The notes under the pieces were generated by a model. The model was not told where the DNA came from. It ran no database searches and worked only from the letters and a program-made list of their open reading frames with translations. A program made the translations under genes and the position numbers. Positions 6,852-48,963 of a stretch of DNA of 64,000 nucleotides are shown piece by piece (the first letter of the stretch is position 1; every line of letters starts with the position of its first letter). The DNA is from Octopus vulgaris (Eukaryota). Location: NCBI GenBank assembly GCA_951406725.2, contig OX597830.1:26784001-26848000 (forward strand), given 5' to 3'.

Positions 6852-7922
6852 TCAATTTCAATGAAGAACTGACCATTACACACACATATGTGTATATAAT
6901 TGAAGAAAATGGAGTCAAGAAGAAGGAGAACAGTTGGGCATTTATTTATTATTCACTACAGTTGTTTTGATGCAACGTAACACTTCAAGAATACAGGTAT
7001 TTGATTATGCAACTGTTTGTTTGCATGACAAGATCTAGTTACATTTCCTCAGGTGGCATATGAGTGTTGTCTCCATTAGTTTAAAATCACCGACTTCAAG
7101 GCTATCTTCTTTGTTCATCATGGTTTGAATTTAGTAGCAGTTAATAGACCCATGGTGTTTGCTATGAGAGTGCATAATGCTCATTTTGCATTTGCATGAT
7201 TTTGGGTTCTGTTCCACTGCCAGCATTTTAGACAAGTGTTTCCTACTATATATACCAGGTGACCAATGGTGTGTGAGTGAATTTGGTAAATGGAAATTTT
7301 GGAGGCTTGTTGTGTGTCTAGGCGTGGCTATAGGGTAAGAGACTTGCTTCATGGCCTCATACTTTCGGATTCAGTCTTGCTGCAGAGAATCTAGAGCAGG
7401 TGTCATCTACTGTAGCCTCAAGGTAAGCAAATCTTTGAGAATGGATTTAGTAGATGAGAACTGAAAAAAGCCTGTAACAGAATAAATGAGTAAAAGGATA
7501 TGAAGTATTGTTAAAACCAATAAATACATACTAAAAAGTACTCAATACATGAGATTCTGTTTATTTGTATTTGTCAGTTGCACAAAACACAAAGACAGGG
7601 CAGTAATGAAGATTATTCAGCCCCACCCCTCACACAAACACATACACAACACACACACACGTGCACTCATGCACAGAAATTCTGTGTTGGACAGTTTCAA
7701 GTAATCGAACCTTTTAGCGTTCCCTACCTAAATATATTAGGTCATGCATCACAATCAGAGCATGACCGCTAAAGTAATAATACACTCCTTCTTAGCTCTT
7801 AAAGTAAGGTATTTTTAATATGCGTGTCATATTTTTAATATGTGTTTGTGTATATATATATACACACACATATATGTTTAGTTATATTTGTTTATACGTC
7901 TATGTATATAGATTCATGTCTT

Positions 7923-16874: not shown

Positions 16875-17016
16875 TGTATATATGTATGTATGTATGTGTG
16901 CATATGTGTGTATGTATATGCATTTATGTATACACACACTCACACATACATATACACACATACATACATGTAAGAAAATGAGAAAAGAGAATAAATGATT
17001 ATCATATGAACTTCAT

Positions 17017-17100
17017 TAGGTTACAGCTGTTTCTGCTATAAGATATAGTGGACTCATAATTGAGTGTCTGGGTGACACCTTATAGCTTCATCAGAGCCTA
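17017..17100 (-). ncRNA. Type I hammerhead-ribozyme-like motif (Penelope-type, long stem II)
   Basis: Minus strand reads taggct CTGATGA a GCTATAAG..CTTATAGC a GAAAC AGCT GTA acctaa: intact core, palindromic stem III, bulged stem I. Confidence 0.6.
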
Positions 17101-17404
17101 GAATTTGAAGTGCAATCTATTTGGGAAAAGAATTACATTTTATGCATATACACAGGAAAAAGCATTACCAACAAGAAAGCAAACGTATGTGGGGGATGAG
17201 CAGCCCTTGATTTTCATCTCCCATGTATGTGTTTGCTATGCAGTGAGATAGAAACTCTAACATGTGTGAAGCAAGTTTCTCAATCACACAACTTAACTGG
17301 ATGATCCATGAATTGATATTATAACGAATGGCTGTCTATTGATGGTCTTTTTTTTTTTAAATCAAAATCTAGAATTGCATTGCACTCCATACATCAAATA
17401 TTAC

Positions 17405-18240: not shown

Positions 18241-18367
18241 TGATGTGTGCCTGCTTAGAAATTCTTATGTTATTCTTTCTTTCTTTCTTACATCTGCATT
18301 TGCTACTAGAATTTATAAATTTGTTTTTTATTCCATTATTATTTGCATCATAGGTATTCATATTATT

Positions 18368-18446
<79 letters not shown>

Positions 18447-18479
18447 TTATTATGGGGAAAGTATTTAATTTTATCCTTA

Positions 18480-19140
18480 TACTCTGCAGTTTTTAGGGCC
18501 GTATTATACTTATCCTTGTGCTTATCAAAAATCTTTTCATTTGAGGATAGATTTCAGTTTGTTTTGCTTATAATTCTTAAAAGGGCTCTTTTTATTTGTT
18601 GAGGATGGTTACTAAAATTATTTATATACCTTAAGTTGGAGTTCTATTTCTTATACCGTTCATGCAGTCTGGTGTTCAAGTTGCAGTTTATGCCTGAGTA
18701 GTTGAGTAATTTTCGTTTTCTATGGTTATAGAGAGACCAAATCTACTGAAGGACTTAGTAGTTTCTTTAATAATTCTAGGCATCTATTCAAGTGATTTCT
18801 AACTATAAAGAGTGCATCATCCCTATAGAGACCTCCTCTTAATTCTGAGAATTGTTTGTTTATGTTGTCTTAAAGGCAGATTCCTACTAAGTCAGTCACT
18901 TCTGCTGAATCTGCTGAGCCCATTGTGTTATCAAATAGATTAGGTGCATCATTTCTTGCCCATAGTTTGTTGTCAAATTCGATAACAGATTTTTGGGCCG
19001 TAAATACAATATTTATTTTCCTCATGCTTAAACTAGTGAATTTCCTGCCAAAAATAAGAGCACTGTTTGAAATAGTAGGGTTAATTGAAGAGTAATAGTT
19101 TTATATGTCTATTTGTAAGAATTTCATCCAATTTTTTTCA
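18480..19140 (-). mobile_element. Penelope-like element reverse transcriptase relic
   Basis: Translates as ..LFDNTMGSADSAEVTDLVGICL*..GGLYRDDALF.. and, after a frameshift, YINNFSNHPQQIK..LSSNEKIFDKHK..YNTALK. These are the RT core and thumb motifs of PLEs. Confidence 0.85.
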
Positions 19141-19741
19141 TTAATAATATACTCATATATTAAACTAATTCCTTTTATAATGCTATATCTACTAAATAGT
19201 GATTAGCATCTAACCTCTAACCCCTGTAACATGGACCAAACCATTAAACCCAACACATAACATACTACCCTCACTATTTCCCCCAGTACGATTGAAACAT
19301 GATGTGAACTGCAGCCTGTGGAAATTCCTCCTGAGTGTGACTTCACCTCCTTACCACAGGATGGAATACCATGGATTATATTAACACCTTAATTAAAGTC
19401 CTTACCTTTCCTTACTATGTCTATCACATTATTTTATTTTATTTTATTTTACCCTACTCTATCTTTTAACTGACTTTCACACATGTTAGTTCCCTAACAT
19501 TTGGACCCTCTGAAGAAGCCTAGGGGCACATCCATTATCCAAAACCTGTCCAATGTCTGTTCAACCCTGTATATCACTGACGGGATGAAGATAACATGGA
19601 AGTTTTTTTGCCTCATGGTAGAAACGACTGCAAGGCATTAGTACCTGTACACTCATCTATTATTATTCATTTGTTTCAATATATATATATGTGTGTGTGT
19701 GTGTATATATATATATGTGTATATATATATATATGTATATA

Positions 19742-20574: not shown

Positions 20575-20705
20575 GTTTCCTAACGCCAGGACCCTCCTTT
20601 TGCCACTTTATTCCTTACTTCTACCTATTCAGCGCAGTGGATTTACTCTCACCTCAGTCATGGGACAAGCTATGACAATTATCTCAAAAGAAGATGCATT
20701 ACCAG
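20575..20705 (+). CDS. MSRA: MSRA exon 2: (M)FPNARTLLLPLYSLLLPIQRSGFTLTSVMGQAMTIISKEDALP(G)
   Basis: Polypyrimidine tract + CAG acceptor at 20572-20574, donor G|GTCAAA at 20706. IISKEDALPG matches the conserved MsrA N-terminal ALPGR segment and is phase-compatible with exon 3. In-frame ATG at 20660. Confidence 0.85.
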
Positions 20706-22320
20706 GTCAAATTTTATGCCATTTTTTTTTTTTCAAAACAATAACATTTCTCATTCTAACCCTTCAACTTCAAATAAGAGAGCATTTACATGGTTGACAT
20801 GTCTGTTGGAAATTGTGGCCAAATTTTATTCAAATCTTTATCTACCATCTAAAATACAAGAGTTATTGTATGATAACTCCTCTGTATGATAAATTATATT
20901 GTATAAAAGATACAAAGAGGTTTTGTCAGGGTGACTCAAATAAATAGGTATGCACTCTGAATGCTCAAATTGGTATGTCACTAAAATTCTGGTTTGAACT
21001 GCACTTGAACATGTGATTTTGTGACTGCCTTTCTAAAGTGGCTAGAAGTGGCTTCCCCTTGAGCCACTAGGTAACTACTAAGGCAGAAAGGAAAAGGAAA
21101 ACAGTTTGGCAGTCCTTGCCAAACTGTTTGCTGCCTTTTTTCTTTTCTGTTTTAAATTATATTGCATAAAGTGACATAAATTTGGATTCAGGCAGTAGCA
21201 TCAATAAGAGCTTCATATTGTTGAAATAATTTCAGAAAACAAGTTATTTATATTTTGAGTTTTTCATTACAATTGTTTTGAGGATCTTAACAGAACTAAC
21301 CATCTTATCAAATGAAAATATCATATCAAAATGTAAAAAGCACAGGTTGAAAATATTGCTCTTATATGTGGGTGGGCTGGAACTTTCATTGGCTGAATTA
21401 TACTCAAAGTACAAATAATGACAAAAGTGATAAATATTATCATTTTGGACAGTGTGAATCCAAATATACAAAACGATAAGTATGAACTGGAGATAGTTGA
21501 AAATCCTTTAATTGTAGGGCTATTCACTGAGGGTTGAGCTGAAGCTAAACAACGTACGGGTGGGGGCAAAAACAAAAAGATAATTTTGTCACATCGAAAA
21601 ACATGACTGTAAAAGGTGCAATAACTGCCAGATATCATAATTCATTGCATGCAATAATGTTTATATATAAATGAATCCTTAGAGATTGTCCGAGGTTTCA
21701 GGTTTTTGTCATTTTCTGTCTAAAACATTTTGCATTTGAATCATCAAGGATTATGAGCTACAGGCATTATAGGATTAAGATTAAGATTAATCGTTTTCTT
21801 GTTATTGCTTTCATATTAAGAGATTAAAAATTATTTATCTCTACACTACACTCTGTTTGTTTGATCTTTAGTTGTCATCAAGTTTTTAGACTGGGATTGA
21901 ATCAGGACAGATGTACTGTGTGTGTGTGAGAGAGAGAGGGAGAGAGAGGGAAGAGAGAGAGGGAGAGAGAGAGCGAGAGAGAGAATGTACCGTAAGCGAC
22001 CACAGAGAATGAGGCAGTGAGAAAGGGAAGACTATGAATTAAACTGTATTAGTAGGGTAGAGGGGAGACATGGAGAGAAGAGGTAGATTGTTTTTTTTCT
22101 TTATTGGTTCATATTGATAAATGTCCCATGTAGATTTTGATACATATATGGATATAATGAGTGTTTGTGTGTGTATTTATAAGCAAATATGAGAGTGATA
22201 GTACTATCAAAATACCGTCACTAGTGGCAGTGAATATCAGCTGTACTGGTAAAATTAATAATATATTTATATATATATATACATACATATACATACATAC
22301 ATACATACACACATACATGC

Positions 22321-22352
<32 letters not shown>

Positions 22353-22353
<1 letters not shown>

Positions 22354-22637
22354 GAGGTGCAATGGCCCAGTGGTTAGGGCAGCGGACTCGCGGTCGTAGA
22401 ATCGCGGTTTCGATTCCCAGACCGGGCGTTGTGAGTGCTTATTGAGCGAAAACACCTAAAAGCTCCACGAGGCTCCAGCAGGGGGTGGTGATCACTGCTG
22501 TACTCTTTCACCACTCTTTCTCTTGCTCTTTCTTCTGTTGGCCTGCTCGCTTAGCCAGCGGGGTGGCGTCATTCGAAGGCTAAAACAATGCGAATGCGAT
22601 GTGTAACTACATCTGATGGACTGGTCGGTCACGTGAT
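22353..22637 (+). mobile_element. SINE family C (tail type 1)
   Basis: Same head and tail as 8706-9011. Confidence 0.9.
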
Positions 22638-22864
22638 ATATATATATATACATACAAAGGTACTGTGTGAGCACCTGCATCACTAAAAGTAGAAGTCAAA
22701 AATACTTCTGTGCCATGGAAGAGTCACAAAATTAATACAAGTGTGATAGAAAAGAATTCCAGTGAACAATAAAATTGTCTTGCCTTTGTTAGGTCAGCAA
22801 AAATAATGCTGGTTAGTTTGATATCTTTGCCCCTTATATACTTATATATATGTATCTATATATC

Positions 22865-22904
<40 letters not shown>

Positions 22905-22936
22905 CTATATATCATTTATATATATATATCATTTAT

Positions 22937-23230
22937 TTAAAGGTCACAATACATATATTAAAGCGCTACTAATAGTTTTGTATGTTGAGAAAACTCAAGC
23001 ACATTCTTCAGATGCAAACCACATATCATAACAAACTAAAGAAATTGAATTATAGAAGAGATGTGAAAAACTAAGGAGGCAGCATATAGAAAATGCAGAC
23101 AGTTTTTTCATGTTTCTTCTATTACTCAATTTCTTTCGTTATATGTGGTTTGCGTTTGAAGAGTATGTTTGAGTTCTCTCAACATATGAAACTATTAATA
23201 GCACTTTAATACATGTGTTGTGACCTTTAT
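22937..23230. repeat. Diverged inverted repeat (arms about 135 bp), each arm carrying a decayed hammerhead-like core
   Basis: AAAGGTCACAATACATATATTAAAG.. is mirrored by ..CTTTAATACATGTGTTGTGACCTTT. The two-arm consensus contains CTGAAGA-hairpin-GAAAC. Confidence 0.8.
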
Positions 23231-23427
23231 ATAAATTATATTTATCTCTCACCAGATGGAGTACTTTTTTTGTTGAATTTTCTATCATGGAGCAGTATAT
23301 TATATATATATACTCACAGGTGTGTGTATATATATATATATATATTCACAGGTGTATATATATATATATATTCAGTGGTGTATATATATATATATATATA
23401 TATATCATCATCATCATCATCATCATC

Positions 23428-23463
<36 letters not shown>

Positions 23464-23949
23464 TATATCCTCTGATCTGCTTTTAACTCATTTTGAATAT
23501 ATATATATACACGTTAAATTAATAATCATTATAACCCATGCTAGCATGGAAAACGGACGCTAAACGATGATGATGATGATGATGATATATAATTATTAAT
23601 TTTATATATAAATTGCTTTTTTCCATTCTGACACCAGATAATTGTCATTAACATGACTTTTATCCTTTTTTCATGAATATATAAATGTATGTATGTATAT
23701 ATATACATATATATACACACACATACACACACACACATACACACACAACTGCATGCATACATGCAACACATACACATACACACACACATGAGGAGCTTCC
23801 TTCAGTTTTAGTCTATGAAATCCACTCACAAGGCTTTGGTCAGCTGAAGGCAATTGTACAAGACACTTGCCCAAGGTGCCATGCAGTGGAACTGAACCTG
23901 GGAGTATGTGGTTGGAAAGCAAACTTCTTACCACACAGCCACACCTGCA

Positions 23950-23990
<41 letters not shown>

Positions 23991-24419
23991 CTGTTTGTTT
24001 ATATAATCAAAAAAAAAAAAAACCGAAGAAAAAGCATAAGAAGCAAAAAACAACACTGCGAGGACATGGTACTTGCAAAGTATAAACAGACACTCAGGGA
24101 AGAAAGAAAAAAGTTGTTTTACATTTCGAGGAAAGCTCTTCTTCAGAAACAGGAGACAGAGGAAAGTCCAAGAGAAAAGGAAGATGGAGGGAAAAAAATT
24201 GTCAACATCCCACATGTAATGATATACAGGGTATTCAAAATGTCTCAATGCAGTAACTATTTTATTGCGAAATAAATATTTATAAGATGGCATAAGGCTA
24301 CAAAAGAATATATTAGACTTTACAAGATTTTAAAAAACTTTATAAGAAGTGTTGAAAATGTCATCCTTCATTTTCAATACAAAAGTTGACACGTCTACAC
24401 ATGTTTTGAAATACATCTT

Positions 24420-25820
24420 GTAGCGGACTAGATTATGGTTGTAACGAGGGTTGTTATATTGTCTATGGTCGATGTGGTTTGGGTTAAATTTATTTTTACT
24501 ATTGTAGCATGGTTGGAGGGAGAAGTTATGTCGTCTAGTTAGGTTGTGTTTAATTGAATGATTGAAGTAACCATATTGAGGGTTAAGTCTTGGAGGTAAA
24601 TTCTTCCATTGATTGTGAGATGATGGGGGTGTATTTGTAGGTATTGGTTCCCAAAAGTTTAGGTTGGTCTGGAGGTTTCGATGGAACCTTTGATTTGTAT
24701 GTGGGATGCCTTGAGGATTACGCGCAGATTTTCTATTATGGACTCAATTCCTGATCGTTGTTTGAAAGTTATTTGGGGTGTAAGCGTGGTTAAGTCAGTG
24801 GAGTTGTGTCCCTTAGATCGTCTGTAGTTTTGTGTTAGATAAGCGTGGGATCATTTCTGTGTATATTTTTGGTTTATTTTTCTTCAGGAAGGGGTTATCC
24901 GATGTGTTTTCTATGTTGAACTGTGTTTCGTAATTAAAAACAGGAATTGGTTTGTCTTTCCCAGTTTAAAAACACTTTCCAAGCTTTGACCATCTGAATG
25001 TTTCTTGAATTCGTTGCAGATTTCCTCATCGATGATTTTAAATTTCTGTTCATTGCTTTGTGCTCTAAGCTTAACCTTTTTGTTACCAACCCGGCTGAAA
25101 CTGGCTCTGGTTCTGAATACAAATGTCATGTTTTCATATGTTTTGAATTGAAATCTTCCACCAAATCTTAGTCACAATTTATGTTCCTAACACACTAGCT
25201 TAATGATAAATAAATTATTTCACTAAATTCTTTCTTATATTTAAAGTAATTGAAAGAAATACAGAGTATCTCAAAATAAATACAGTAACGAAAGGGTTAA
25301 GGAGTTCTATTTCTGTCTTCATTTTTTCCAGTGTTAGTTTCTCCCTTAATTGTCTTTGCAGGTCCTGCTCATTTGGAATACGTTTAATTTGGAATTTATG
25401 AGGCAAAATTATCGGTGTAGAATTTAACCAGCATTCATAAATTTCTGCCTTGTGGTTGTTTTTAATCATATTCCAGAACGAAAATCTTCTGGCTTTAAGT
25501 TTTTCATTCCATATGTGGATAATGCTGTTTTTAATAGATAGTGTAAGCATGGAGGTGGCTCTATCTTGTGTATCATCTGTAGATGGATTTTCATTTAAAT
25601 AATTATTATGAGATAAAGAATGAAGAGTGGTGCAGAATTCAGACAAATGTTGATTGAGTTGTTCCAGAGATTGTTCTTTCTCTTCTTTTTCTTTTGCCTC
25701 TTGTGTAAAGTGAGTGAGTTAATCGATCTTGCTAATTAGAAGTCTCAAATTCGTGTTGGTCTCTTTTAGTTCCTTAAGAGTCTCTTCATTGAGAGTTTTA
25801 ACTGTAGAGTTTGGTGTTTG
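24420..25820 (-). mobile_element. Decayed coding relic, probably the N-terminal ORF region of a retroelement
   Basis: Non-repetitive reading frame (IWNEKLKARRFSFWNMIKNNHKAEIYECWL..EIELL|KLRAQSNEQKFKIIDEEI) is rejoined when the MITE at 25075-25296 is removed. Stops and frameshifts elsewhere. Family assignment is inference. Confidence 0.5.
25075..25296. mobile_element. piggyBac-type MITE
   Basis: TTAA TSDs at 25071-25074 and 25297-25300. Its removal restores the flanking reading frame. Confidence 0.9.
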
Positions 25821-25825
25821 TGGCA

Positions 25826-25862
<37 letters not shown>

Positions 25863-25965
25863 GTGTGTGTATAAATTAGAAAAAACACCTTTTATCAATT
25901 CAATAAATTGAATTTTTCCCTGCAAGTTTGGAATAATTTTCCCTTATATTATTACTATATGTGTG

Positions 25966-26062
<97 letters not shown>

Positions 26063-26084
26063 GATATATATATGTATATACATG

Positions 26085-26118
<34 letters not shown>

Positions 26119-26152
26119 TAGATATAGATATATACATGTATATACATGTATG

Positions 26153-26183
<31 letters not shown>

Positions 26184-26437
26184 GTGTATGTATGTATATA
26201 TATATATATGTATATATGTATGTATATATGTATTTATATATATATGTATGTATATATATATGTATGTATGTATGTGTGTGTGTGTGTGTATATGTATGTG
26301 TATATATGTATAGGGAGAGAGTAAAAAAAGCAACGGTGTAAGGATGTGATACATGTAAAGTATTAGCAGACACTCAGGGAAGAAAGAAAGATGTATATAT
26401 ATATATATATATATTAAATTAATAATCATTATATATG

Positions 26438-26488
<51 letters not shown>

Positions 26489-26537
26489 ATATATATATGT
26501 ATATATATATATATTAAATTTATAATCATTATATATG

Positions 26538-26576
<39 letters not shown>

Positions 26577-27339
26577 ATAATTTCCTTAAATCCTTAAAAA
26601 TGTTTCAGCCTGAAGGCTGCGGTCATGCTGGGGCACCACCGTTGAATGAGCTACACTAGTATGTGAATCCACCTCTGATACGTGGCACTTAGTCAACAAG
26701 GGAGTTCGATGCTGCTGCCCGCATCTGTGTCTCCTGCCGAGAGGTAGGTTCATCTGGGACCCCGGACAAGAAGAGGTCCAAAACAAACCCACATCCACAC
26801 CATGCATCTAGGGAGGATGTTGAAGAGCTGTGGTCCTCTGAAACCCAAGCTGTTGCAGTATCTGTTCCTGTATTTTGATGGTGATGTTGGAATCTTTGGC
26901 TCCATGCAGTGGCACCCCGTTCTGTGGTTGGGGTAACTTTGAATGCCAAAGTTCGGGACAAGACCCTCAAGGATTTTCCAGATATATATATGCTTATTTT
27001 AAGGTACAAAGTCGAATTAATTCAGTATGGCGGAGATAAGTCTTGGTTTGACACACACACACACATATATATATATATAATAATAATAAAATTTGGGAGT
27101 ATGGCTCCAAACTTACAGGGAAAATTAGATTTAGGATTAAATCAAATTTCTCAGTATAAATATATAAAATATGAATTAGAGATAAAACTACTATTAGGCA
27201 ACTCAAACAGTGATAGACATAAACCAATACATAAATAACAAATAATATAAATATAATAAAATTTTTTTTTTTTGAGTTGCCTAATAGTGGTTTTATCTCT
27301 AATTTCATGTATATATATGTATATATATATATTGTAGAA

Positions 27340-27920
27340 ATATGTTATAAAAAGAAAATATAAAATACACGTGGAAATGTAAAGGTAAAATATGAAAAAT
27401 CAACGAAAATGCACATTGTAAATTTAAAAAAAGGGCTTTTTATGAAAGGTAACGACAAATATATACATTTAGATGGACTGAGGAAGTCATAAAAGTCATT
27501 ATTATGACATGATTATAAAGTCAGAAAACAAAGCATACCATGGTTTCTGCAAAGCTATTCATTGCTTCGTATACACCGGCTAATACATGGTGTCAGGTCT
27601 AATAGTTCCTGAGAAAAAAGATTATTTGTAAGGGAGGTAAATAGTTCTGGATTATTTGTAAGGGAGGTAAGTAGTTCTGATTTAAAAATGTGAATGGTGT
27701 AGGGAGTGTATAGGGGTTAGTGTTTTAAATTGAAGGGTTAGTGGTGTTCTGTATTGAGTTGTGTGTTCATATTTAGTTGGGGAGATATTTATTGATGAAA
27801 AATGCCTCTTTATTCAATCTTTGTTGCATTGTGGTGTTCTGTGAACATTGATAGAAGGGGAAGATTTGGAAATTGGGATTAAGATTCCTGGCACACCTTT
27901 CTATGTGTTCACTCACCTTT
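27340..27920 (-). mobile_element. Penelope-like element 3' end (GIY-YIG C-terminus plus pLTR-like tail)
   Basis: VSEHIERCA..FQIFPFYQC..RLNKEAFFINKYLPN resembles the PLE endonuclease C-terminus (H..C..R...E.FFI..P.LN). A hammerhead-like GAAACCATGGTA lies downstream. Confidence 0.65.
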
Positions 27921-28902
27921 AACTGTATTGTGGGTGGCGGATTTGCTCCACAAGGAGAAACCACAATTAGATATATATTTCTTTATTGCCCACAAGGGGT
28001 TAAACACAGAGGAGACAAACAAGGACAGACAAAGGGATTAAATCAATTACATCAACCCCAGTGCGTAACTGGTACTTATTTAATCGACCCCCCCCCCACC
28101 AAAACATAGAAATATGTTATAAAAAGAAAATATAAAATACAAAGAAAATATAAAATACACGTGGAAATGTAAAGGTAAAATATGAAAAATCACTCACCTT
28201 TAACTGTATTGTGGGTGGCGGATTTGCTCCACAAGGAGAAACCACAATTAGATATATATTTCTTTATTGCCCACAAGGGGTTAAACACAGAGGAGACAAA
28301 CAAGGACAGACAAAGGGATTAAATCAATTACATCAACCCCAGTGCGTAACTGGTACTTATTTAATCGACCCCCCCCCCCACCAAAAGGATGAAAGGCAAA
28401 GTCGACCTTAGCGGAATTTGAACTCAGAATGTAATGGCAGATGAATAGACCCAACCACAACCAATATATAAACAGTGGCAGACTGGCCAGGTTGTCAGCT
28501 TGCCTGATGGCAAGTGGGCCCCTGTGCCAATAGAATCCATATATGGGAACCTATGTTAGTATCTAAGGGGCACATCCCCTCAAGTTCGAGAATTTTTTAT
28601 TCACTCCCAGAAGAATGCATTGATTATTTCAGCCTGGCTGTGTTTGTAGACAGTTGAAAAGATTACTTTTAACAAAAAGAATTAAAAAAATAAAATAAAA
28701 TAAATGATAGCATCATAGATGCAGGTGGCCTCCCTTAGTTTCCTGGCAAACTAATATTTTTAGACCCAGTCTACCACTGGGTATAAGGACAGACACATAT
28801 AAAAAAAAATTTTTAAACAATTTTATACATATTATCATTTTTAAAAAATACTTTCCATGACCTAAATCATTTTTCAATATACATATATACACAATAAACA
28901 AA

Positions 28903-29310
28903 GGCGTAGGAGTGGCTGTGTGGTAAGTAGCTTGCTTATCAACCACGTGGTTCCGGGTTCAGTCCCACTGCGTGGCACTTTGGGCAAGTGTCTTCTACTA
29001 TAGTCTCGGGGCGACCAAACCCTTGTGAGTGGATTTGGTAGACGGAAACTAAAAGAAGCTCGTTGTATATATGCATATATATGTGTGTGTGTGTGTGTGT
29101 TTTTGTTTGTGTGTCTGTGTTTGTCTCCCCAACATCGCTTGACAACCGATGCTGGTGTGTTTACATCCCCCATAACTTAGCGGTTCGGCAAAAGAGACCG
29201 ATAGAATAAGTACTAGGCTTACAAAGAATAAGTCCTGGGGTCGATTTGCTCTACTAAAGGTGGTGCTCCAGCATGACCACAGTCAAATGACTGAAACAAG
29301 TAAAAGAGTA
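28903..29310 (+). mobile_element. SINE family A, full length
   Basis: Complete head, internal microsatellite and tail. Confidence 0.9.
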
Positions 29311-29339
29311 TATATGCCTGCACACACAAACACACACAA

Positions 29340-29370
<31 letters not shown>

Positions 29371-30086
29371 AACATACACACATGTATAAAAAAGAAAATA
29401 TTGCACAAACACACACATACAAAAGAAAACATCATAAAAGCACACACACAACTCTACACACACACACACACGCACACAAACACACACATACACAAAAATG
29501 AAAACATCACAAAAACAAACATACACACAGCTGGTGGCCACACACATACTCACAGGTGGAGACACTCAAAAGAATACATCCAGCCCAAACAAAAATCCTA
29601 ATTCTTTTACTCAACAAAAATAAATTTTTCACAACATATTCACCCATCAAATCACAGCTGGTCATTTTTCAAAACATATTGAAAGCACACTCAACACAAT
29701 ACACACACACACACACACCCACACACACACACACAGAGGCACAGGAGGACATAAAACCCATTCAACAAAGGCTTTTTAGCCACTCCTTTGACAGGAACAC
29801 TCAAAGATTTCTTTTAGATTAGACAACAGACACCCCTGCTTTCACTCTCTAACACTTTGAATTCTACACCCAATCTCAAAACATGTTCTTCACCACCAGA
29901 CAGAAGACAGACTGTTTTTACTTCAAATTTTTATAATTTTTATAAAATTTTTTGTAATATTTGATAAGATGAAATACATCAAAACCTATAATATTAATAT
30001 TTTTCTTTATATAATCTTTTAGTAAATTCCCTCTTAAACTGAAATGTCTTAGACTTAATTCTGAGATATTTCCACCTCCATCTTGA

Positions 30087-30122
<36 letters not shown>

Positions 30123-30256
30123 TGTATGTATGTGTGTGTGTATATTATATATATATATATTATATATGTGTATATATATATGTGTGTGTGTGTGTATAGA
30201 TATGTGCATATATGTATGTGTATATATGTATATATGTATGTGTGTATATATGTATG

Positions 30257-30288
<32 letters not shown>

Positions 30289-30303
30289 TATGTACATATA
30301 TAC

Positions 30304-30350
<47 letters not shown>

Positions 30351-30784
30351 TTCAATACACAAACAATGAAAGAAAAAAATGGAAACCAAGACAAGTAACA
30401 TAAAGAACGATCCTTCATCAGTTGCTAGCTGCCTGTCTACTCCTCGTTAGATGGCAATGAGGATAAAATAGCGAATACTGGAGAAATATTTTCTTTGAAA
30501 AGAGTAAAGATAGAAGAGTGAGGTAGAATACATTCAGTCCTTAGGACAGTCCTGAAGGAAAAGGAAGAAGATCATGTGAGGAAAAGAAAGATGGATGATG
30601 GTCACATGTGAGCAATGAGAGCAAGAAAAAGGGAGAGGGAGAGAGAGAGAGAGACATAGAAAGCAGTGAAGGGTAGAAAAAGATAAGGGAGTAAACAGTA
30701 TAGAGTAGAGTCATATCAAAAAGATATGGATGCGTGGCATTCAATCAAATAATAATATAAGTAATATATATGTGCATATATATA

Positions 30785-30829
<45 letters not shown>

Positions 30830-31244
30830 GTATGGGTGCAGGATGTCACCAACAATAAACAACATGAAATGCAAAAACAAATGAGTTCAATACGCAAACA
30901 ACAAAAGAAACAAATGGAAAACAGGACAAGTTACATAAAGAACGACCCTGTCATCAGTTGTCAGCTGTCTATCTACTCCTCATTTCGAGCATTGAACGGC
31001 AGTATGAGTCTTCGAAGACAGTTGCTCCCATAAGTACCAAAATAAATTTTGGATTTATGGAGGGTCAAAGTTGGGAACAAAAACAGGACAGTGGAGACAT
31101 ACAAGGAAACTGAACTAAATCAAGCATGGAGGGTTGTTAGGCCAGAACGAGGGTAAATTAGGAAATGGTGGAGAAATATTTTCTTGGAAAAATGAAAAGA
31201 TAGAAGAGAGAGGTAGAATACATCCAGTCCTTAGAATGTCCTGG

Positions 31245-31698
31245 TGTAGGGCTTAAGGCCCAAGTCATCATTCACAGCTGGTCTGATGGTCAAGTTTAGA
31301 AACCAGCTTCCTCATGGATGTGGTCCATTGAAACTTTGGATCATGAGGGTGTTGATGAAGTCTTGATTCTGCTTTTTGTTGTCCCCACTGCTGCCAGACT
31401 TCCTCTGAATGCTGTTGCCCATGTCCATTCTCTTCTCGACTTTATAAACTGTACCTAAGAACACTCCAACTATGCTTGAGATCCTCTTCAGATTGACTTG
31501 TGCATGGACTAAATCACATACTCTTTGGCATTTGTCTTCCTGCGCAGTCATATTCTTAAATTTTTGCTGCAAAAAAATGTTTATTATTAACTGACAATGT
31601 ATTCTTTGTTCTGCATTAGGTTTCATAACATTTGGTGTAGTGGTTGTTGGGAAATATTAGTCTAACTTTTAAGGCAAGTTTTGCTTCCCCACTCTATA
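31245..31698 (-). mobile_element. Tc1/IS630-like transposon 5' fragment
   Basis: HTH-like frame KCQRVCDLVHAQVNLKRISSIVGVFLGTVYKVEKRM..IQRKSGSSG.NKK. Ends at a TA. Confidence 0.6.
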
Positions 31699-31775
31699 AC
31701 ACACACACACACACACACACACATGATATACAATGTGATATATTGCTAATGTATACCTGTATGTTCTGTCCACAG

Positions 31776-31871
31776 GAAGAGCTGATAAAATGGATGTTTT
31801 GTCAACACATGCTGTCCATAAAAGGACCATAGTCGAGCCATTTCCAGAACATCTTGAGAATGCAATGTTTG
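31776..31871 (+). CDS. MSRA: MSRA exon 3: (G)RADKMDVLSTHAVHKRTIVEPFPEHLENAMF(G)
   Basis: CACAG acceptor, G|GTAAGC donor, phase 1/1. Matches the MsrA segment H.V...T..PFP.....A.FG. Confidence 0.93.
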
Positions 31872-32053
31872 GTAAGCTCCAGAATATCTCTTCAGAATAT
31901 CAATAATAATAATGCAGTTTTGCCATCTACACTACACTGAACACAATATATACACACTGTCAGTCTACACCCAGTACAACATCTACAGACAGTCACTGTA
32001 CACCAAATGCAACACGAGAAAGTGATTCAGAAAACGATAATAATGATAATATA

Positions 32054-32312
32054 CTTTACATTATAAATAATTTTGACATTTTTTTTATTTTGCCTAAAAT
32101 ATTCTTTACATTATAAATAATTTTGACATTTTTTTTATTTTGCCTAAAATATTCTTTACATTATAAATAATTTTGACATTTTTTTTATTTTGCCTAAAAT
32201 ATTCTTTACATTATAAATAATTTTGATATTTTTTTTATTTTGCCTAAAATATTCTTTACATTATAAATAATTTTGACATTTTAAAAAATTTTGCCTAAAT
32301 ATTCTTTACATT
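32054..32312. repeat. 50-bp minisatellite x5 in MSRA intron 3
   Basis: CTTTACA recurs at 32054, 32104, 32154, 32204, 32254 and 32304. Confidence 0.97.
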
Positions 32313-32684
32313 CTGTTGTTTATTTGCCATTTATTTACGAGTATTATAAATTTTATAAGTAAAATATTTTTCTGGGAATGAATTACAATTTATAACATTG
32401 CTACTAGCGGAAATTATCACTCTGCTTTATGAGTTTTCATTTACGAGTAGTCTCCAAGAACAAATTAACTCATATATCAAGGCGCTATTGTATATCTTTT
32501 AATGTACATAATATAAAGATATGAGCTACCAATGGTTTCATGCTTTGGAGACACGGGTCTAGACAATTTTTCATAACATGCCTTGTGTCTTCAAGCATCT
32601 TTAGGCTCGTATCTTTATAATCTGTGCATTAAATGATATTTATCTCTCATGTGTGTGTAATGCAGAATGAAATCTTTGTTTCAG

Positions 32685-32749
32685 GTATGGGTTGTTTCTG
32701 GGGTGCTGAGAAAAGGTTCTGGAATGTGCCTGGTGTTTTTTCTACACAA
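32685..32749 (+). CDS. MSRA: MSRA exon 4 with the catalytic motif: (G)[21 protein letters not shown]
   Basis: TTTCAG acceptor, GTAAGT donor. GCFWG active-site motif with Cys encoded by TGT. Confidence 0.97.
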
Positions 32750-33037
32750 GTAAGTCATTGTTTAACATCCACTTTACCGTGCTTGCATGGGTCAGATGGA
32801 ATTTATTGAAGTACATTTCTTATACATAGACAGACGCCTTTCTTGTTGCCAAGCATTGCCTGTTACCAAGCAAGGTAATATTTTCTCATCACTAGACATG
32901 TTTTTCACAGAAAACTGGAGATGAATAACCTCACTTGTATGATGATGCTCGTTTGCAACCATCATGTGATGTCTAGATAATGAAACACACACACACACAG
33001 ACGCACACACACACAGACGCACACACACACACATACA

Positions 33038-33079
<42 letters not shown>

Positions 33080-33177
33080 CTCTCTCTCTCTCTCTTTTGC
33101 AAGATTCTTTATATGAGTTTGTGTGTTGAAGCATATTCTGTTGTGTCTGGGGAGAGTCATTTTCTTTTTGTGCCTAA

Positions 33178-33320
33178 TGATTTAACACACTCACCGGTAA
33201 AATTTCCACTTATTTCTTATTTTTATTTTCCTATCGAAAAGGTTATAAGATGCAAAGAAAATTTTAGGAAAATAAAAATAAGAAATAAGTGGAAATTTTA
33301 CCTGTGAGTGTGTTAAATCA
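33178..33320. repeat. Palindrome with arms of about 56 bp
   Basis: TGATTTAACACACTCAC..TTTTCCTA / TAGGAAAA..GTGAGTGTGTTAAATCA. Confidence 0.9.
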
Positions 33321-34870
33321 TGAGTGCATTTTGTTATACTGAATGAGATTAATTTAGAAATCAAGCTAGGTATAATTTTCTGGAGGATATGAATAGCTTA
33401 TATAATGAAGTGTAAGTGAAAGACCCCCCCCCAAAAAAAAAACTTCTCTTTATGTATTATTATTATTATTATTATATAAGGGGCAATAACTCATGTTTTG
33501 AACAATTGAATTTATCTTTATCTTTAATATATAACAATATATACAATTAATAGTAATTTATATATCCATCCATCCATCTCTCTATCTATCTATAAATAAA
33601 TAAATAAATAAATATATAAAAAAGGAACTTTAGGTTAAAATATATTTGTGATATATTTTGAGAGGCAAATTCACTGCAGTTACTGTGGAGAAAAAAATCT
33701 CTTTTGTGGTAAAAGGTGTAAAAACACCATATCTGCCCATTTGCTCAGTGGTTCCCAATATCAGATTCCCAGATACATGTTTCTGGTTGTTTAGTCTTCC
33801 TCATTGGGAAATACGGAAGAGAGATAACTCTGGGCAGATTCAAATCCGTACCTTTATCTAAACATGGTCAACATCAGTGAGTGAGTTGTGCCAATGGACT
33901 GCCTGGTCAGAATTAAAAAAAAAAAAAACAGTATCAGCACCGAGCAATGATTAGGAATAGGTCAGTTGAAATATTTTTCTAAAGGCAAATTCACTGCTGT
34001 TACTCTTTTTAGGAAGGACATCCAGCTGTAGAAATTTTGCCAGATCAGATTGGAGCCTGGTGCAGCCTCTGGCTCACCAGTCCTCAGTCAAATCGTCCAA
34101 CCCATGCGAGCACGGAAAGCAGACGTTAAATGATGATGATGATGATGATGATGATGAAAGGCTTCTTTCAGTTTCTGTCTACCAAATCTACTCACAAGGC
34201 TTTGGACAGCCCAAGGCTATAGCAGAAGACACTGCCATCCATTGGGACTGAACCCAGAATCATGTGGTTGGAAAGCAAGCTTCTTACCACACAGCCATGC
34301 CTGTGCCTATATATACCTATGCATACATACATAAAAACTTATATCATACTTGTATTTTAGTTACACACACATACACATACACACATACATACACACACAC
34401 ACACATCCTAGAACTAGGTATGAATTATCAACGGAAAGGATTGAAAATTTATCACAGATTTTGTACAATTAAAGGGACAATTAAAGGAGATATATTAAAG
34501 GGATAATTAAAGGAGATATATTCTTTCACCCTTATCCTTGTCTGACCAATAACTTACAAGGCATTACGGGGGCCAAAGCAAAACATATACAAGACCAGTT
34601 TCAAGTCAGTGTTAAAGTAAATGTGTGCAAACACACGCACACAGCAGCAACAGCACCACCACCACCACCATCACCATTTTACCATCCGCTTTCCATGCTT
34701 ACATGGGTTGGGCGAACAATGAGATTGAAATAGGTACTTGAAGTACTTATTCAAAGTACTTATTCAAAGTACTTAAAAAGCCATTATGGCTACAGTTCAT
34801 TGACTGAAACCATTAAATGAATAATAGAAATACACATACATTTATATATGTATTCATATACTCATATGTT

Positions 34871-34927
<57 letters not shown>

Positions 34928-35067
34928 ACGGATTTGAAACTTATTTTATTATGTAAGCACACATATATATTCAAATACTCATATAATTTTCTCTCTCTCT
35001 CTCTTACTAAAAACACACACATGCATATATATGTGTGTGTGTGCATGTGTATATGTGTATGTTTGTA

Positions 35068-35115
<48 letters not shown>

Positions 35116-35116
<1 letters not shown>

Positions 35117-35341
35117 GGCGAGCTGGCAGAAACGTTAGCATGCCGGGCGAAATGCGTAGCCGTATTTCATCTGCCGTTATGTTCTGAGTTCAAATTCCAC
35201 CGAGGTCGACTTTGCCTTTCATCCTTTCGGGGTCGATAAATTAAGTACCAGTTGCACACTGGGGTCGATGTAATCGACTTAATCCCTTTGTCTGTCCTTG
35301 TTTGTCCTCTCTGTGTTTAGCCCCTTGTGGATAGTAAAGAA

Positions 35342-35344
<3 letters not shown>
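35116..35344 (+). mobile_element. SINE family B monomer
   Basis: Full head and unit with CpGs largely intact. Confidence 0.88.
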
Positions 35345-35377
<33 letters not shown>

Positions 35378-36136
35378 GTATATATATATATATATATATA
35401 TACACGCAAAAATTCTATGATTATGAGTATAATTATAATTAGGGTTTAGCAAAATTTGCTTCACCACATACCGAAATTTAGAAATAGCAGTTAAACTACT
35501 CTTTTACTACCATAAGAAAATCTCCCAGACAGCACTTTTCTTATGGTAGTAAAAGAGATTGATTTTGCTTTTCATCATTTTAGATCGATAAAATATGTAC
35601 CACTTGAGGACTGGAGGTTGATGTAATCAACTACCCACCCCCGATCCCCCAAAATTTCAAGCCTTGTGGCTATGGTAGAAAGAAAATTATTATTATTATA
35701 TTTTATATCCTGCCACAGATTGATGTAAATAAATTGTGTGGCAGAGGTTTAACCAATGTGTTCACATGGTGTACTTCTCAAGACTACCAGAACTCTCTCT
35801 CTACTACTGATCTCTACTCTTTATAAGAGTTCGACCAGTCCATTCTCCAATCTGCCAGGGGTGTCAATGACTCTTGCCACAACATTATTCTTAGTGGTAT
35901 TTCTTCCAGCTTACTGCTGGCTTAAATGCTAAAATTTCAAACTATTATTCTGTTATTTACATTATTTACACTTGACGGATATTTGTCCTCATCTTATTTA
36001 TTCTTAACACAATGCTTCGGCTTATATACCCTCCAACCTTCATCAGGCGTCGTGAAATTTCAAATTTGGGTTCTCATTCCTAAGGTATTTTTTGTCGGCG
36101 GCGTCGGCAGCGTCAGTGTTAGCATTGTCATCATCG

Positions 36137-36188
<52 letters not shown>

Positions 36189-36348
36189 CATTATTATTCA
36201 GGTTACTACCTGGAATCGAACTTAGAATCTTGGGGTTAGTAGCCTGCGCTCTTAACCACCACACCAAATGTAAATAATGTAAATAATTCCTCATATCTTA
36301 AATATAGAACTGTATTATTCTAAAACGAAGCAAAATTTTCTCCGACAG

Positions 36349-36477
36349 GTTGGATATTCTGGGGGCCATACAGAGAACCCAACATATAAAGAAGTGTGTT
36401 CAGGGAAAACAAGTCACGCGGAAGTTGTACGTATGCAGTTCAACCCTAGTGAGGTGAAATACGTGGAACTACTCAAG
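36349..36477 (+). CDS. MSRA: MSRA exon 5: [43 protein letters not shown]
   Basis: GACAG acceptor, AAG|GTCAGT donor, 43 codons in phase 0/0. VGY.GG...NPTY.EVC.G.T.HAEVV is the MsrA signature. Confidence 0.97.
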
Positions 36478-36912
36478 GTCAGTAATTTGGGTTGGATCTT
36501 TCTTTCTCTCTTCCTTTCTTTTTTTTTTGGTGCCATATCCACAATGGTGATCATGTCCAGCCACAATTCACTATTCTTTTTCTGTAATAGTTCCTGATGT
36601 TTAATGCCCCTTTCTTTCAACCTGTTTGTCAAGATTGATAGCCATATCATCCTACTTACTTTTTCTTCCCCTGCTTCTTTTGCCTTCAATCCTTCCAGTC
36701 ATTGATAAATTCTTCAGGCCTTCTTTCCTCATCACACAACCAAGAAATTCAGTTGTTTGGCCCTTACCTTATGAAGCGGTTTCTTATTTACCACAGCTGG
36801 GATCATCACTTCATTAATATCTGACTCCTCTTTCTCTTACTTTTCCATCTCCTCCTCCTCCTCCCCAAATCTCTTTCCTTTTTTTTTTTTGCTTTTCATT
36901 ATTGTCATTATT

Positions 36913-37400
36913 GTGGAGGCATGTGGCTTAGTGGTTAGGGTGTCAGCATCATGATCATAAGATTGTGGTTTTGATTCCTGGACCGGGCGACGTGTTATGT
37001 TCTTGAGCAAAACACTTCATTTCACTTTGCTCCAGTCCACTCAGCTGGCAAAAATGAGTAACGCTGCAATGGACTGGCGTCCTGTTCAGCTGGGGAACAC
37101 ATATGCCATAGAAACCAGGAAACCGGGTCCATGAGACTGTCTAGGCTTTAAAAGGGCGCATTTTGTGGAGGCGCATGGCTTAGTGGTTAGGGTGTCAGCA
37201 TCAGGATCGTAAGATTGTGGTTTCGATTCCTGGACTGGGCGATGCATTGTGATCTTGAGCAAAACACTTCATTTCACATTGCTCCAGTCCACTCAGCTGG
37301 CAAAAGTGAGTAACGCTGCGATGGACTGGCGTCCTTTCCAGCTGTGAGACACATACGCCATAGAAACCAGGAAACCGGAGGCTTTAAAAGGGCGCGTTTA
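36913..37400 (+). mobile_element. Tandem dimer of SINE family D
   Basis: Two head-to-tail copies of about 250 bp bracketed by one TSD, TATTGTCATTATT. Confidence 0.85.
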
Positions 37401-37431
37401 TTTTTTATCTATTGTCATTATTAGCTCTTTG

Positions 37432-37652
37432 TTTAAGGCGGTGAGCTGGCAGAATCGTTAGCACGCTGGATAAAATACTTAGTATTTCACCCATCACTAT
37501 GTTCTGAGTTCAAATTTTGCTGAGGTCAACTTTGCCTTTCATCCTTTCGGGGCTGATGAAATAAGTACCAGTAAAACACTGGGGCCGATGTAATCAACTA
37601 GTCCCCTCCCACCAAAATTTCAGGCCTTGTGCCTATAGCAGAGAGGAAAAGG
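37432..37652 (+). mobile_element. SINE family B monomer with the alternative tail
   Basis: 15-bp TSD ATTATTAGCTCTTTG (37417-37431, 37653-37667). Confidence 0.88.
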
Positions 37653-37829
37653 ATTATTAGCTCTTTGCTCTCCATGAGAAGGCACAAGGTTTAATGGCTA
37701 GGGGTATTCAGATCACAATCGTAAGGTTGTGAGTTTGATTCCCAACATCGTGTTCTGTCTTTGAGCAAGACACTTTATTTCTCATTGCTTTAGAATTCAA
37801 ATTACTGTTAAATGTAATGCTTATTTATT

Positions 37830-38510
37830 CATGTGCTCAAGTATGTTTGTGGGCTAGAGGCTGAAGTGTGAATATGGTTCTGCAACAGAGGAAGGTACAC
37901 TAGTGTGCCTGTGATCCAGAGGCTGAAGTATGAGCATGGCTCTGGGCCAGGAACTGGTGCACAGATTTGTGTGGGCCAGAGTCTGAAGTATGAACATAGC
38001 TCTGAGTCAGGGGCTGGTGTGCAAGTGTGCTTGTGTGCAAGAGGCTGAAATATTGGCATGGCTCTGGGCCTGGGGCTAGTGCTCATGTGTGCTTGGAAAC
38101 TAGAGGCTGAAGTACGAACATGGTTGTGCAACAGAGAAAGATACGCAAGTGTGCTTGTGATGCAGAAGATGCTGAAATATGAGCATGGCTCCGGCATGTT
38201 TATACTAGTACATGAGCACACTTGTGGGACTGAGGCTGGATTGTGAGTGTGCCAGTGAGCTTGGGGACTGGTGTACTCAGATTCTAATCTCTGACTCATG
38301 GGCAAACTTATACTCCAACTTGTGGCCCACAAGCATGAGCTTGAGGATGCCTTTCGACTAAAGAGTGACAATGAACATTGTCTGTGTGACAGTAGTTGGA
38401 GTGTGAGCATTCCTGTAAGACAAAGGCTTGTATATGTGTATGACTGTAGGCCAGAGACTTGTGTATGGCAAACCTGTGGGGGCCTGAAGCTGGAGCACAT
38501 GGCCATGGTA
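37830..38510. repeat. Degenerate minisatellite with a unit of about 62 bp
   Basis: GGCTGAAGTATGAGCATGGCTCTG-like motif near 37858, 37921, 37981, 38043, 38105 and 38171, and again near 38483. Confidence 0.75.
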
Positions 38511-40808
38511 CAGAAGGTGGATTCTGAGTACACCTTCAGTGAGCACAGCAACGTGTATAGAGGAATGATAAACATTACTGAACAATATTTAAATAACCCT
38601 AACAAGTCTCAGGGAGACAACTCGAAATTTTACAGAACAATGCAAAACAGGTTTTGAAATTACGTGATTCACAGCTCCCTTTTTATTATAAATATAAATT
38701 AGAAACGTAATAAGGGTAAAAAATAATCTGATTTTTGGTAGATAAGGAGACAACTTGAAATAAGTTTCAGCTTTATTGCTTTCCTTGGCAAAATATAATC
38801 ATTCATTTGCTTATCAGATTTATAAACATACAGAAATGTATGCATATATCAGGTATTTGATGTGCTGGGAGAATGCCTCAAATTTTATAAGTTCAGCTAT
38901 ATTAATTTAAAAATATAATCCAAAATTCACCTTACAGATAGTGTATCCTAGCAACAAACTATTACAACAGCAGCCAAACTATTTCTTGTTTGCTGAAAGA
39001 AACTTGACGTCTGCATTAAAACAGAATATTTAAAAGGCCAGTGATAACAAATGAGAAGCAGTTTATTTAGTTCTCAACTACAGTAAACTTATAAAAATAA
39101 CCACCACTTAAAACCTCTTAACTTTTTCTTCTTTAACTAGTTTCAAACATCGTTAAAAACATTAGCATTAACCCTCTCAGATCTGGGCTCCTGTGTCTGA
39201 CTTTATCCACCACTTGGTCTCCTGAGCAAGAAAATAAATAGCTGCATATAAATAGCTACAAGCAAAGTAGTCACCAAAGGGTATCAGGAAAATAACAGTA
39301 ATAGGTCTCTCAACTACCATAGGGGTTCATTGCAGACAAACTAATGCACAGAATCACAAATAGAAAAAATAGATAAGCCGACAAATAATGTGAGCTCATG
39401 GCTGTTTCCTGCACCAGTTTTGCATAGCCCCAGCCCATCGTAAGTACCTTGGATTGCTGTGCTTACCTTGGATCGTAGGGTGACCTGCTGTGCTTGAGGA
39501 GACCTATTGAGTCAAGTACATCAACATCAAAATAAATATCAAATGGAAATTGTAGTTGTGATACCTGTGCCGGTGGCACGTAAAAAGCACCAACCGATCA
39601 TGGCCGCTGCAGCCTCCCCTGGCACCTGTGCTGGTGGCACGTAAAAAGCACCCACTACACTCATGGAGTGGTTGGCGTTAGGAAGGGCATCTAGCTGTAG
39701 AAACACTGCTAGATCAGACTGGAGCCTGGTGCAGCCTCCTGGCTTCCCAAACCCCGGTCGAACTGTCCAACCCATGCTAGCACGGAAAACGGACGTTAGA
39801 CGATGATGATGAAGCCTATTTTCAGCAATTGTATTTGTTCTCTTGAATTGTTATTTCCCTCATCACTTTCACTTTCAACATTCTCATTGCCTGCATAAGT
39901 GCAAATATCAATAATTTCTTCAGCTGCAAAGAGTCCAGGCCTTGCTCATTTACAAGATGAAGTGCTGGGTTCATCAACCGCTCGTTTCATTGCAAAATTG
40001 TCTTCTTTTTTTTTTTAAATGAAAAACAAAAATAAACAGCAACTGTGGCGAACACCTTTAACAATGAGTCATAAACACACTTGACTAAAAAGCTGGAAAG
40101 TGACCAATTGTCAATTTTTAGTAATTTACCTTCTTTTTCTGTGTGAGTTGTTCATTATCTCTTTGCTGGGAACCCAGTAGAGGTTTCGTTTATGCTATTC
40201 TTGTATACCAGGATCATAGCATAATAGGGTTAAAGTTAGTTATCTCTGGTCTTTTCTGATCTATTTTATATGTGCACTCTCTGGTCTATATTTATCCTTC
40301 TGGGTTCCTACTTCACACTATCAGCATATAATGTTAAATATATTAACACTTAATTATCCCTTCATCTTCTCTGGTTTGCATTTATCATTCAGGGTACCTA
40401 CCCTCACATTAACTCTTAATAATATTCTGGGAAGTACCAAAGAAAGATAACTCTGGGCCAACTTAAAACTGCAACTTTAACTAAAAAGGAGTCTCCTCCT
40501 CCTCCTCCTCCTCCTCCTCTTCTTCTTCTTCTTCTTCTTCTTCTTCTTCTTCTCCTCCTCCTCCTCCTCCCCCTCCTCCTCCCCCTTCTCCTTCTTCTTC
40601 TTGCCAAGTGTCTTCCTCACACCTAGGGCAAAGAAACTCATTGTATACATTGGTAGGCCATTAAAATAAAGACACCAGATTGTTCGCTTACAAAGTCATG
40701 TGACAGAATAAAATATGGGGAAAAAAGACAAAGAAAAAATCAAAGACATTCCTGTTAAGACAATCTTTTGCACATCCTGCTTGATTATTATTATTATCAT
40801 CATCATCA

Positions 40809-40851
<43 letters not shown>

Positions 40852-40892
40852 CATTATTATTATTATTATTATTTTTGTTATCATTATTACAG

Positions 40893-41192
40893 ATATTCTG
40901 GGAGAGTCACAACCCAACCCAGGGAATGCGACAAGGAAATGACATTGGTACCACATATCGGTCAGCCATCTATTGCTATGGTGAGCAGCAGCTGAAGGAA
41001 GCACAAGAGACAAAAGAAAAGTATGAGGCAGCTCTAAAAGAAAAAGGCTTCCCAGCTATAACCACTGAAATACGTCCAGCAACACAGTTTTACTATGCCG
41101 AAGATTACCACCAGCAATACCTGCATAAAAACCCCTCAGGTTATTGTGGCCTGGGGGGTACAGGTGTCTCTTGTCCACGAGAAGAACTGTGA
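40893..41192 (+). CDS. MSRA: MSRA exon 6 (terminal): [27 protein letters not shown]...[34 protein letters not shown]
   Basis: TACAG acceptor. Contains the [18 protein letters not shown] and AEDYHQQYL motifs and both resolving cysteines ([13 protein letters not shown]). TGA stop at 41190-41192. Confidence 0.97.
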
Positions 41193-48665: not shown

Positions 48666-48963
48666 CAATCTAAAAATTTGTTTCCATTATATATAACATA
48701 AAATATACTATAAAAAATATATAATATAACATAACAAAGTTTGAAAAAACAAATGTAAAGCTAACAATATTTTTCGACTCATATACACTAGGGAATTTAT
48801 TAAAAATCACCATATACGTATACGAGCCTCTTCAGGGCCTTGGTTCAAAAAATAGACGAAATTCCTTGTAAGGGCTACCAAATTGCAAAAATACTGATTC
48901 AAAATATACCTGCGTTTAGAAGCGTGAGCGTTAACAATTCAAATACACTTTACATAGAATAAG

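Follow-up and report, generated by a model that had tools for sequence, protein, structure and literature searches.

In a 64,000-nt stretch of the Octopus vulgaris genome (positions 26,784,001 to 26,848,000 of contig OX597830.1, assembly GCA_951406725.2; hereafter, the window), the minus-strand motif near position 17,017 is in all likelihood a fossil hammerhead of the kind found in Penelope-like elements (PLEs), lying in a probably non-autonomous repeat (family A) mobilised by Penelope. The 17017 copy is probably a fossil without a host role, and most likely inert.

The hammerhead motif in the window

A type I hammerhead core was found on the minus strand between 17094 and 17022 (17018..17098 for the whole motif), as originally predicted: CTGATGA at 17094-17088 is followed by an unpaired A at 17087, and GAAAC-AGCT-GTA at 17033-17022, whose first three bases (17033-17031) complete the core, is preceded by an unpaired A at 17034. 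The conserved positions (C3-A9, G12-A14, A15.1-U16.1 and H17) are complete both in the window copy, where all 11 core bases are intact, and in the family majority. Stem III is an 8-nt palindrome (17023..17030, minus strand) with a predicted intermolecular duplex of -11.1 kcal/mol, and the predicted cut site lies between 17022 and 17021 on the same strand. Stem I (17098-17095 with 17021-17018, minus strand) is present where its flanks had been pointed out, yet it is imperfect in this copy, in which GGCT stands opposite ACCT with a C.C mismatch at the second pair; the family majority has AGCT and pairs.

The expanded stem II (17035..17086, minus strand) comprises 12 bp starting from G10.1-C11.1, rather than the 8 bp suggested earlier, followed by an internal loop and an inner hairpin, the interior being 28 nt long with a single hairpin. 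The expansion thus stood, but folding predicts a rod interrupted by an internal loop, without branches. Similarly, an A is found on either side of the stem (17087 and 17034), but both are unpaired and flank a normal G10.1-C11.1 pair, instead of replacing a G-C closure by an A.A pair.

Within the window, the 17017 site alone matched a loose descriptor that requires the core, a stem II of 6 bp and a stem III of 2 bp; 14 of 300 shuffled sequences also contained a match (mean 0.05). No matches to Rfam were obtained over the whole window at gathering scores, nor to any of its hammerhead families up to an E value of 10 in 16950-19700. These two results are what a chance match would have in its favour, and its likelihood is negligible: it is refuted by five unrelated families in which core, stems and palindrome have stayed in register, where a PLE hammerhead is expected to lie. 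This family evidence for the motif is much stronger than the shuffle test. A pattern scan of metagenomes gave 18 matches, none with a paired stem II when judged by eye, and these were treated as chance.

Copies, ends and targets of the family A repeat

The genome search for family A gave 1,849 first-look candidates, 40 of which were scored, resulting in 43 matches with identities of 80-89% (self excluded). The repeat is ~340-430 nt long. A 30-mer from its 3' half had 101 exact matches in the genome (control, 0) and was exact in 1 of 50 copies picked independently of it, from which a family of roughly thousands of copies is estimated. An alignment built from 120 loci contained 83 unique copies spanning the motif, which diverged from the majority by 5-44% (median 13.6%; window copy, 9%), and all 11 core bases were kept in 22 of them. 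The copies are old and their decay is neutral-looking.

Counted from C3, alignment ends piled up at +125 to +129 (39) and at +210 to +219 (46), that is, at two fixed 3' ends about 85-90 nt apart, while starts clustered at about -210 to -220 (28), next to a TA/TG microsatellite; the counts for both ends were enriched by the choice of queries. The targets were TA repeats and microsatellite or AT-rich flanks, as judged by eye with no enrichment test. Inverted partners were present at 28 of 108 unique loci and at 6 of 30 in a further sample, mostly with one arm reaching ~+127 and the other ~+212. At the window locus, the main arm (16971..17198, minus strand) is 5'-truncated at -104 and extends to +126 from C3, the first of the two fixed 3' ends, beyond which lies a TA-rich microsatellite, and a short inverted piece (17198..17237, plus strand; -120 to -81) is joined to it head-to-head.

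Retrozymes form a size class of 170-400 nt. It is quite unlikely that family A is a tandem retrozyme spread via circular RNA released by two successive cuts: its size fits that class (220-390 bp in the retrozyme literature), but no head-to-tail copies were seen in the 108 loci or in the 30 further ones, which are a small part of the family, and no copy joined the tail end to the 5' start. An apparent tandem copy at one locus (L016) was rejected, being inverted.

No ORF was found in the family A repeat, and neither RT nor GIY-YIG sequences could be linked to it in searches from its 5' end, its tail and its tail end or by tblastn with PLE fragments. An ORF with RT and GIY-YIG, the criterion used for an autonomous PLE, was found with family C (see below) and not with family A. 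Two candidate partners were rejected: the RT fragment lying 1.2 kb away from the motif belongs with family B, and the PLE fragment at locus L007 is a neighbour. A possible, though doubtful, alternative is that family A belongs to an autonomous PLE as its 3' end (pseudo-LTR), the fixed 5' end being a TA-rich break inside the parent. Families C and D do form ends of this kind, the family A 5' end does border a TA/TG microsatellite, and the ~140 loci examined are few among thousands. Against this, all 28 copies reaching the 5' end had nothing in common upstream except the microsatellite, and none of 60 tail-selected loci continued into a shared ORF when inspected by eye. The family A tail (e.g. 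L042:1947-2045) was also seen to end on a short ATG-started frame placed after a pyrimidine-rich AG, which could be a relic of the ORF start of a parent or of a splice acceptor.

Variation of core and stems among family A copies

The extra positions flanking stem II were A in 79 of the 83 copies (after A9) and in 69 of them (before G12), and the G10.1-C11.1 pair was kept in 57 of 82. For the covariation analysis 12 gappy or very divergent rows were dropped, and in the remaining 71 of 83 rows 1,243 of 1,403 stem cells were paired, compared with 1,238 after shuffling. Covariation among genomic copies, whose absence had been proposed as part of a refutation, did not exceed chance (10 compensatory double changes vs. 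7.2 shuffled); as a refutation this is weak, because dead copies decay neutrally. Clustering of 99 copies resulted in four groups, each with the inner hairpin, and pairing was kept in four of the five outer stem II differences between subfamily majorities, all of them one-sided wobbles. Core conservation was slightly higher than that of the comparison (0.872 vs. 0.833, p 0.048), but given that the copies were picked by similarity it was not taken as a sign of selection.

At core positions 4-5, TG was found in 43, CG in 11 and CA in 9 of 71 copies, while a control CpG gave 13 CG, 25 TG and 25 CA; CA at these positions was far above its level in other TG columns (p 1.4e-4), and one cluster had CG in 4, TG in 4 and CA in 2 of its 10 copies. 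These frequencies suggest that a U4C master may have given rise to some of the family (perhaps a third), in which case some of the "perfect" cores may be products of CpG decay. U4C is a known natural hammerhead variant with lowered activity (PMC3088659). CG at positions 4-5 was also observed in 4 of 25 copies of family D and 3 of 20 of family F.

Copy 5' ends at the predicted cut were weakly, indeed barely, enriched: 5' junctions of tail-bearing arms fell at +71 to +79 in 6 of the 47 parsed (~3 expected, p 0.08; 60 loci examined). Since the copies run through the cut site, most of them would have been made from uncut RNA.

Predicted folds

In the unconstrained monomer fold, part of the core is paired. 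With the core held unpaired, cofolding of two family A majority copies gave a double hammerhead joined by an intermolecular stem III of 8 bp (-70.7 kcal/mol vs. -61.8 kcal/mol for two monomers), and three helices around the core, with the ends in helix I, are predicted for the majority sequence as a dimer. For the window copy the dimer was predicted at -57.9 vs. -47.4 kcal/mol, with stem I shifted.

Other hammerhead families in the window

The same design had been proposed for sites at 6954, 19505, 27530, 32520 and 48757. Four of these are decayed members of separate families with long stem II and unrelated stem sequences, and the exception is 27530, with 8 nt between its core halves (counted here from A9 to G12). 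Family B (19506..19636, plus strand; 312 candidates) has 105 nt between core halves, its window copy lacking U16.1; family D (32523..32608, minus strand; 291 candidates) has 59 nt and lies in an MSRA intron, antisense, with G5A in the window copy; family E (48757..48841, minus strand; 86 candidates) has 53 nt; and family F (6954..7056, minus strand; 709 candidates) has 77 nt, with G12A in the window copy. Together with family A (54 nt), the five families span 53-105 nt. The two unpaired bases at the stem II junction, which had been extended to these sites, were found as A.A at 19505 (as in family A) and as an unpaired A and C (A.C) at 6954, while the junction is a direct G-C pair at 48757 and a direct U-A pair at 32520, the latter replaced by U.U in 5 of 25 family D copies.

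Families B, C and D adjoin PLE coding ends or an inverted RT. Beside family B, on the opposite strand, lies a broken RT fragment (18302..19160, minus strand) interrupted by a trinucleotide repeat, which we take from its motifs to be of Penelope type; the piece of it that was tested had no match in Pfam. Such an inverted RT fragment adjoins family B in the window and in three other loci of 25. In about 20 of 30 loci, as judged by eye, family D comes after an endonuclease-like C-terminus, and this endonuclease fragment had no match in Pfam. Stem I of family B was CCCU/AGGG in 5 of 25 copies, CUCU/AGGG in 4 and CUCU/AGAG in 4, that is, with double changes, which were also found in family C.

Family C, the 27530 site, is a small hammerhead-like motif (27529..27569, minus strand; 1,096 candidates) with an A3-U8 core, a 7-bp stem I, a 2-bp stem II and a CAUG palindrome. 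It follows an ORF with RT and GIY-YIG and, in the window, the end of a GIY-YIG ORF (27937-27830). Among 48 copies found, 39 were parsed, of which 33 had the core AUGAAUA and 5 had U at the expected G12, as one subfamily does; in stem I, the two strands changed together (18 copies with A-U, 4 with G-C and 2 with a further variant). A protein search from family C reached close copies only, and no C3-G8 relative.

Ordinary minimal hammerhead-like repeats occur at 24146 and 44139 (minus strand) and at 44414 and 54207 (plus strand), two of them deviating from the consensus at core positions 6-7. A broken ORF on the minus strand (24330-25880), with an open piece of 167 aa at 25215-25718 that had no match in Pfam, ends upstream of the 24146 hammerhead and is possibly the start of another retroelement. 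Other features of the window include a tandem array with 184-nt spacing (46184-47219), whose unit is also dispersed through the window, near-identical inverted stretches ~500 nt apart (63383, minus strand, and 63882, plus strand), and a 149-aa open frame (9964-10413, minus strand) resembling a fragment of a Tc1-type transposase.

Position relative to MSRA

The coding span of MSRA, with five exons, occupies 20576..41192 on the plus strand, its last exon being 95% identical to an Octopus bimaculoides protein. The sites at 17017, 19505, 6954 and 48757 lie outside this span. The best cores inside the gene had been described as antisense to it, which holds for 24146, 27530 and 32520, but the 17017 copy is not within the coding span; as just three hammerheads lie inside, no strand bias was called.

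It is highly improbable that the host has retained the window copy to serve as a regulatory ribozyme close to MSRA. Its 11 core bases are all intact, which is true of 22 of the 83 copies, the first coding exon found for MSRA lies ~3.5 kb downstream of it, and the motif was unchanged in contigs of other samples covering the site. Contigs of two runs whose RNA nature is a guess (DNA is possible and the strand is not given) cover the motif at a depth of ~3. Nevertheless, the copy is 9% diverged from the majority, has a stem I mismatch and no adjoining partner ribozyme, and is antisense to MSRA and outside its coding span, and 13-27% of family A copies are intact by chance or through the selection of copies.

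Discussion

The explanation that we hold with high confidence is that of a decayed type I hammerhead in a short repeat, likely copied by PLE enzymes, whose ancestor would have cut after GUA weakly, and likely only as a dimer or bound to PLE protein. The motif matches the minimal PLE hammerhead except for the size limit of stem II. The coding ends and inverted RT next to families B, C and D support this explanation, as do the wide dispersal of family A, its inverted partners with two 3' ends, the cofolded dimer, and the pair-keeping changes in stem II between subfamilies of A and in stem I of B and C, while the absence of an autonomous partner for family A in the searches described, the chance-level covariation, the weak 5'-end enrichment and the pairing of the core in the monomer fold count against it. 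For family A itself, cleavage, dimer dependence and any role of the long arm are putative. The repeat would be non-autonomous, as suggested by the lack of an ORF, and reverse transcription of its RNA would have begun internally, at two positions 3' of the ribozyme. The long stem II would be a tolerated, pairing-constrained arm; a neutral arm is plausible in view of the large inserts that stem II accepts in engineered hammerheads (PMC2777235).

The sites had originally been proposed to represent a structurally conserved, sequence-diverse ribozyme class. The PLE type, the palindromic stem III and the expanded stem II hold in five families, but a separate class is an overstatement, as the core is a known one. 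A further reading, which we regard as rather improbable, is that octopus PLEs carry a distinct hammerhead subclass, preserved in five or more unrelated families, in which a structured stem II module of 50-105 nt docks an element protein or gates cutting; combined with attenuated cores (U4C, A3-U8, unpaired bases beside stem II), it would make cleavage depend on assembly of the ribonucleoprotein. Motifs of this type, missed by Rfam and by published descriptors, may be widespread. Families of a single genome with widely differing stem II lengths, junctions (none, A.A, A.C, U-A) and cores offer a natural panel for core tolerance, and the same panel could show if cutting or mobilisation depends on the long arm. 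Current searches undercount animal hammerheads.

Comparison with known systems

The closest known relatives are the minimal type I hammerheads of metazoan PLEs (Cervera and De la Pena 2014, PMC4209133), which are described as having one extra base behind A9, a G10.1-C11.1 pair that is conserved, at most 7-8 bp in helix II and a palindromic helix III; their monomers are inactive and their dimers weak. Family A shares with them the topology, the CUGANGA/GAAA core, the extra base, the G10.1-C11.1 pair, a short stem I, a palindromic stem III (including AGCU with a GUA site) and the prevalence of solo truncated copies. The 2014 descriptor of the same work allows "a possible extra N11", a stem II of 3-7 bp and a loop of 3-10 nt; family A has the extra bases and G10.1-C11.1 but exceeds these limits on stem II and loop, and in our re-implementation the descriptor matched only 24146 within the window. 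The A.A junction is not new, since extra bases on both sides are allowed by that descriptor and AGAAA is present in 1 of its 56 aligned examples (a Cotesia row, as assigned by row order). Family A and its counterparts differ from those hammerheads in having 53-105 nt between core halves vs. up to about 23 nt in the 56 examples (by our count; 26 allowed by the descriptor), an arm two to four times longer than in published examples. Rfam and the 2014 descriptor miss motifs with this spacing. They also differ from the published hammerheads in the two extra bases, the rule in families A, B and F vs. 1 of 56, and in the probable U4C lineage of family A and the A3-U8 core of family C.

In the literature consulted, no description of PLE or octopus hammerheads with a long stem II, or of an A3-U8 core, was found, although Lunse et al. 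2017 and Arkhipova et al. 2017 may cover some variants; the main text of the octopus repeat annotation (PMC13282606), as far as available, contains neither "hammerhead" nor "ribozyme". A spacing of 53-105 nt between core halves in five families looks unreported.

Animal non-LTR retrozymes (PMC7229834; bioRxiv 10.64898/2026.07.22.740005) are likewise short, apparently non-coding, hammerhead-bearing and likely PLE-mobilised. In contrast to them, family A has fixed ends rather than a permuted unit, no tandem copies in the loci examined and no recognisable canonical contact between loops 1 and 2.

As regards mobilisation, the Anolis Poseidon PLE (Frangieh et al. 2024, PMC11167929) has an ORF that starts in stem II, whereas family A has a long stem II and no ORF was found in it, and PLE tails are typically 30-40 bp (bioRxiv 10.1101/2021.04.23.441226), compared with about 85-90 nt in family A. 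Poseidon nonetheless shares AT-rich targets with family A and has two internal reverse-transcription starts that leave a tail and copies made from uncut RNA, as is likely for family A; the tail matches two internal starts in vitro, hammerhead cleavage is protein-assisted and unprocessed RNA is the main substrate (PMC11167929). PLEs have been described with truncated partners in inverted orientation, a tail on one side and insertion into microsatellites (bioRxiv 10.1101/2021.04.23.441226).
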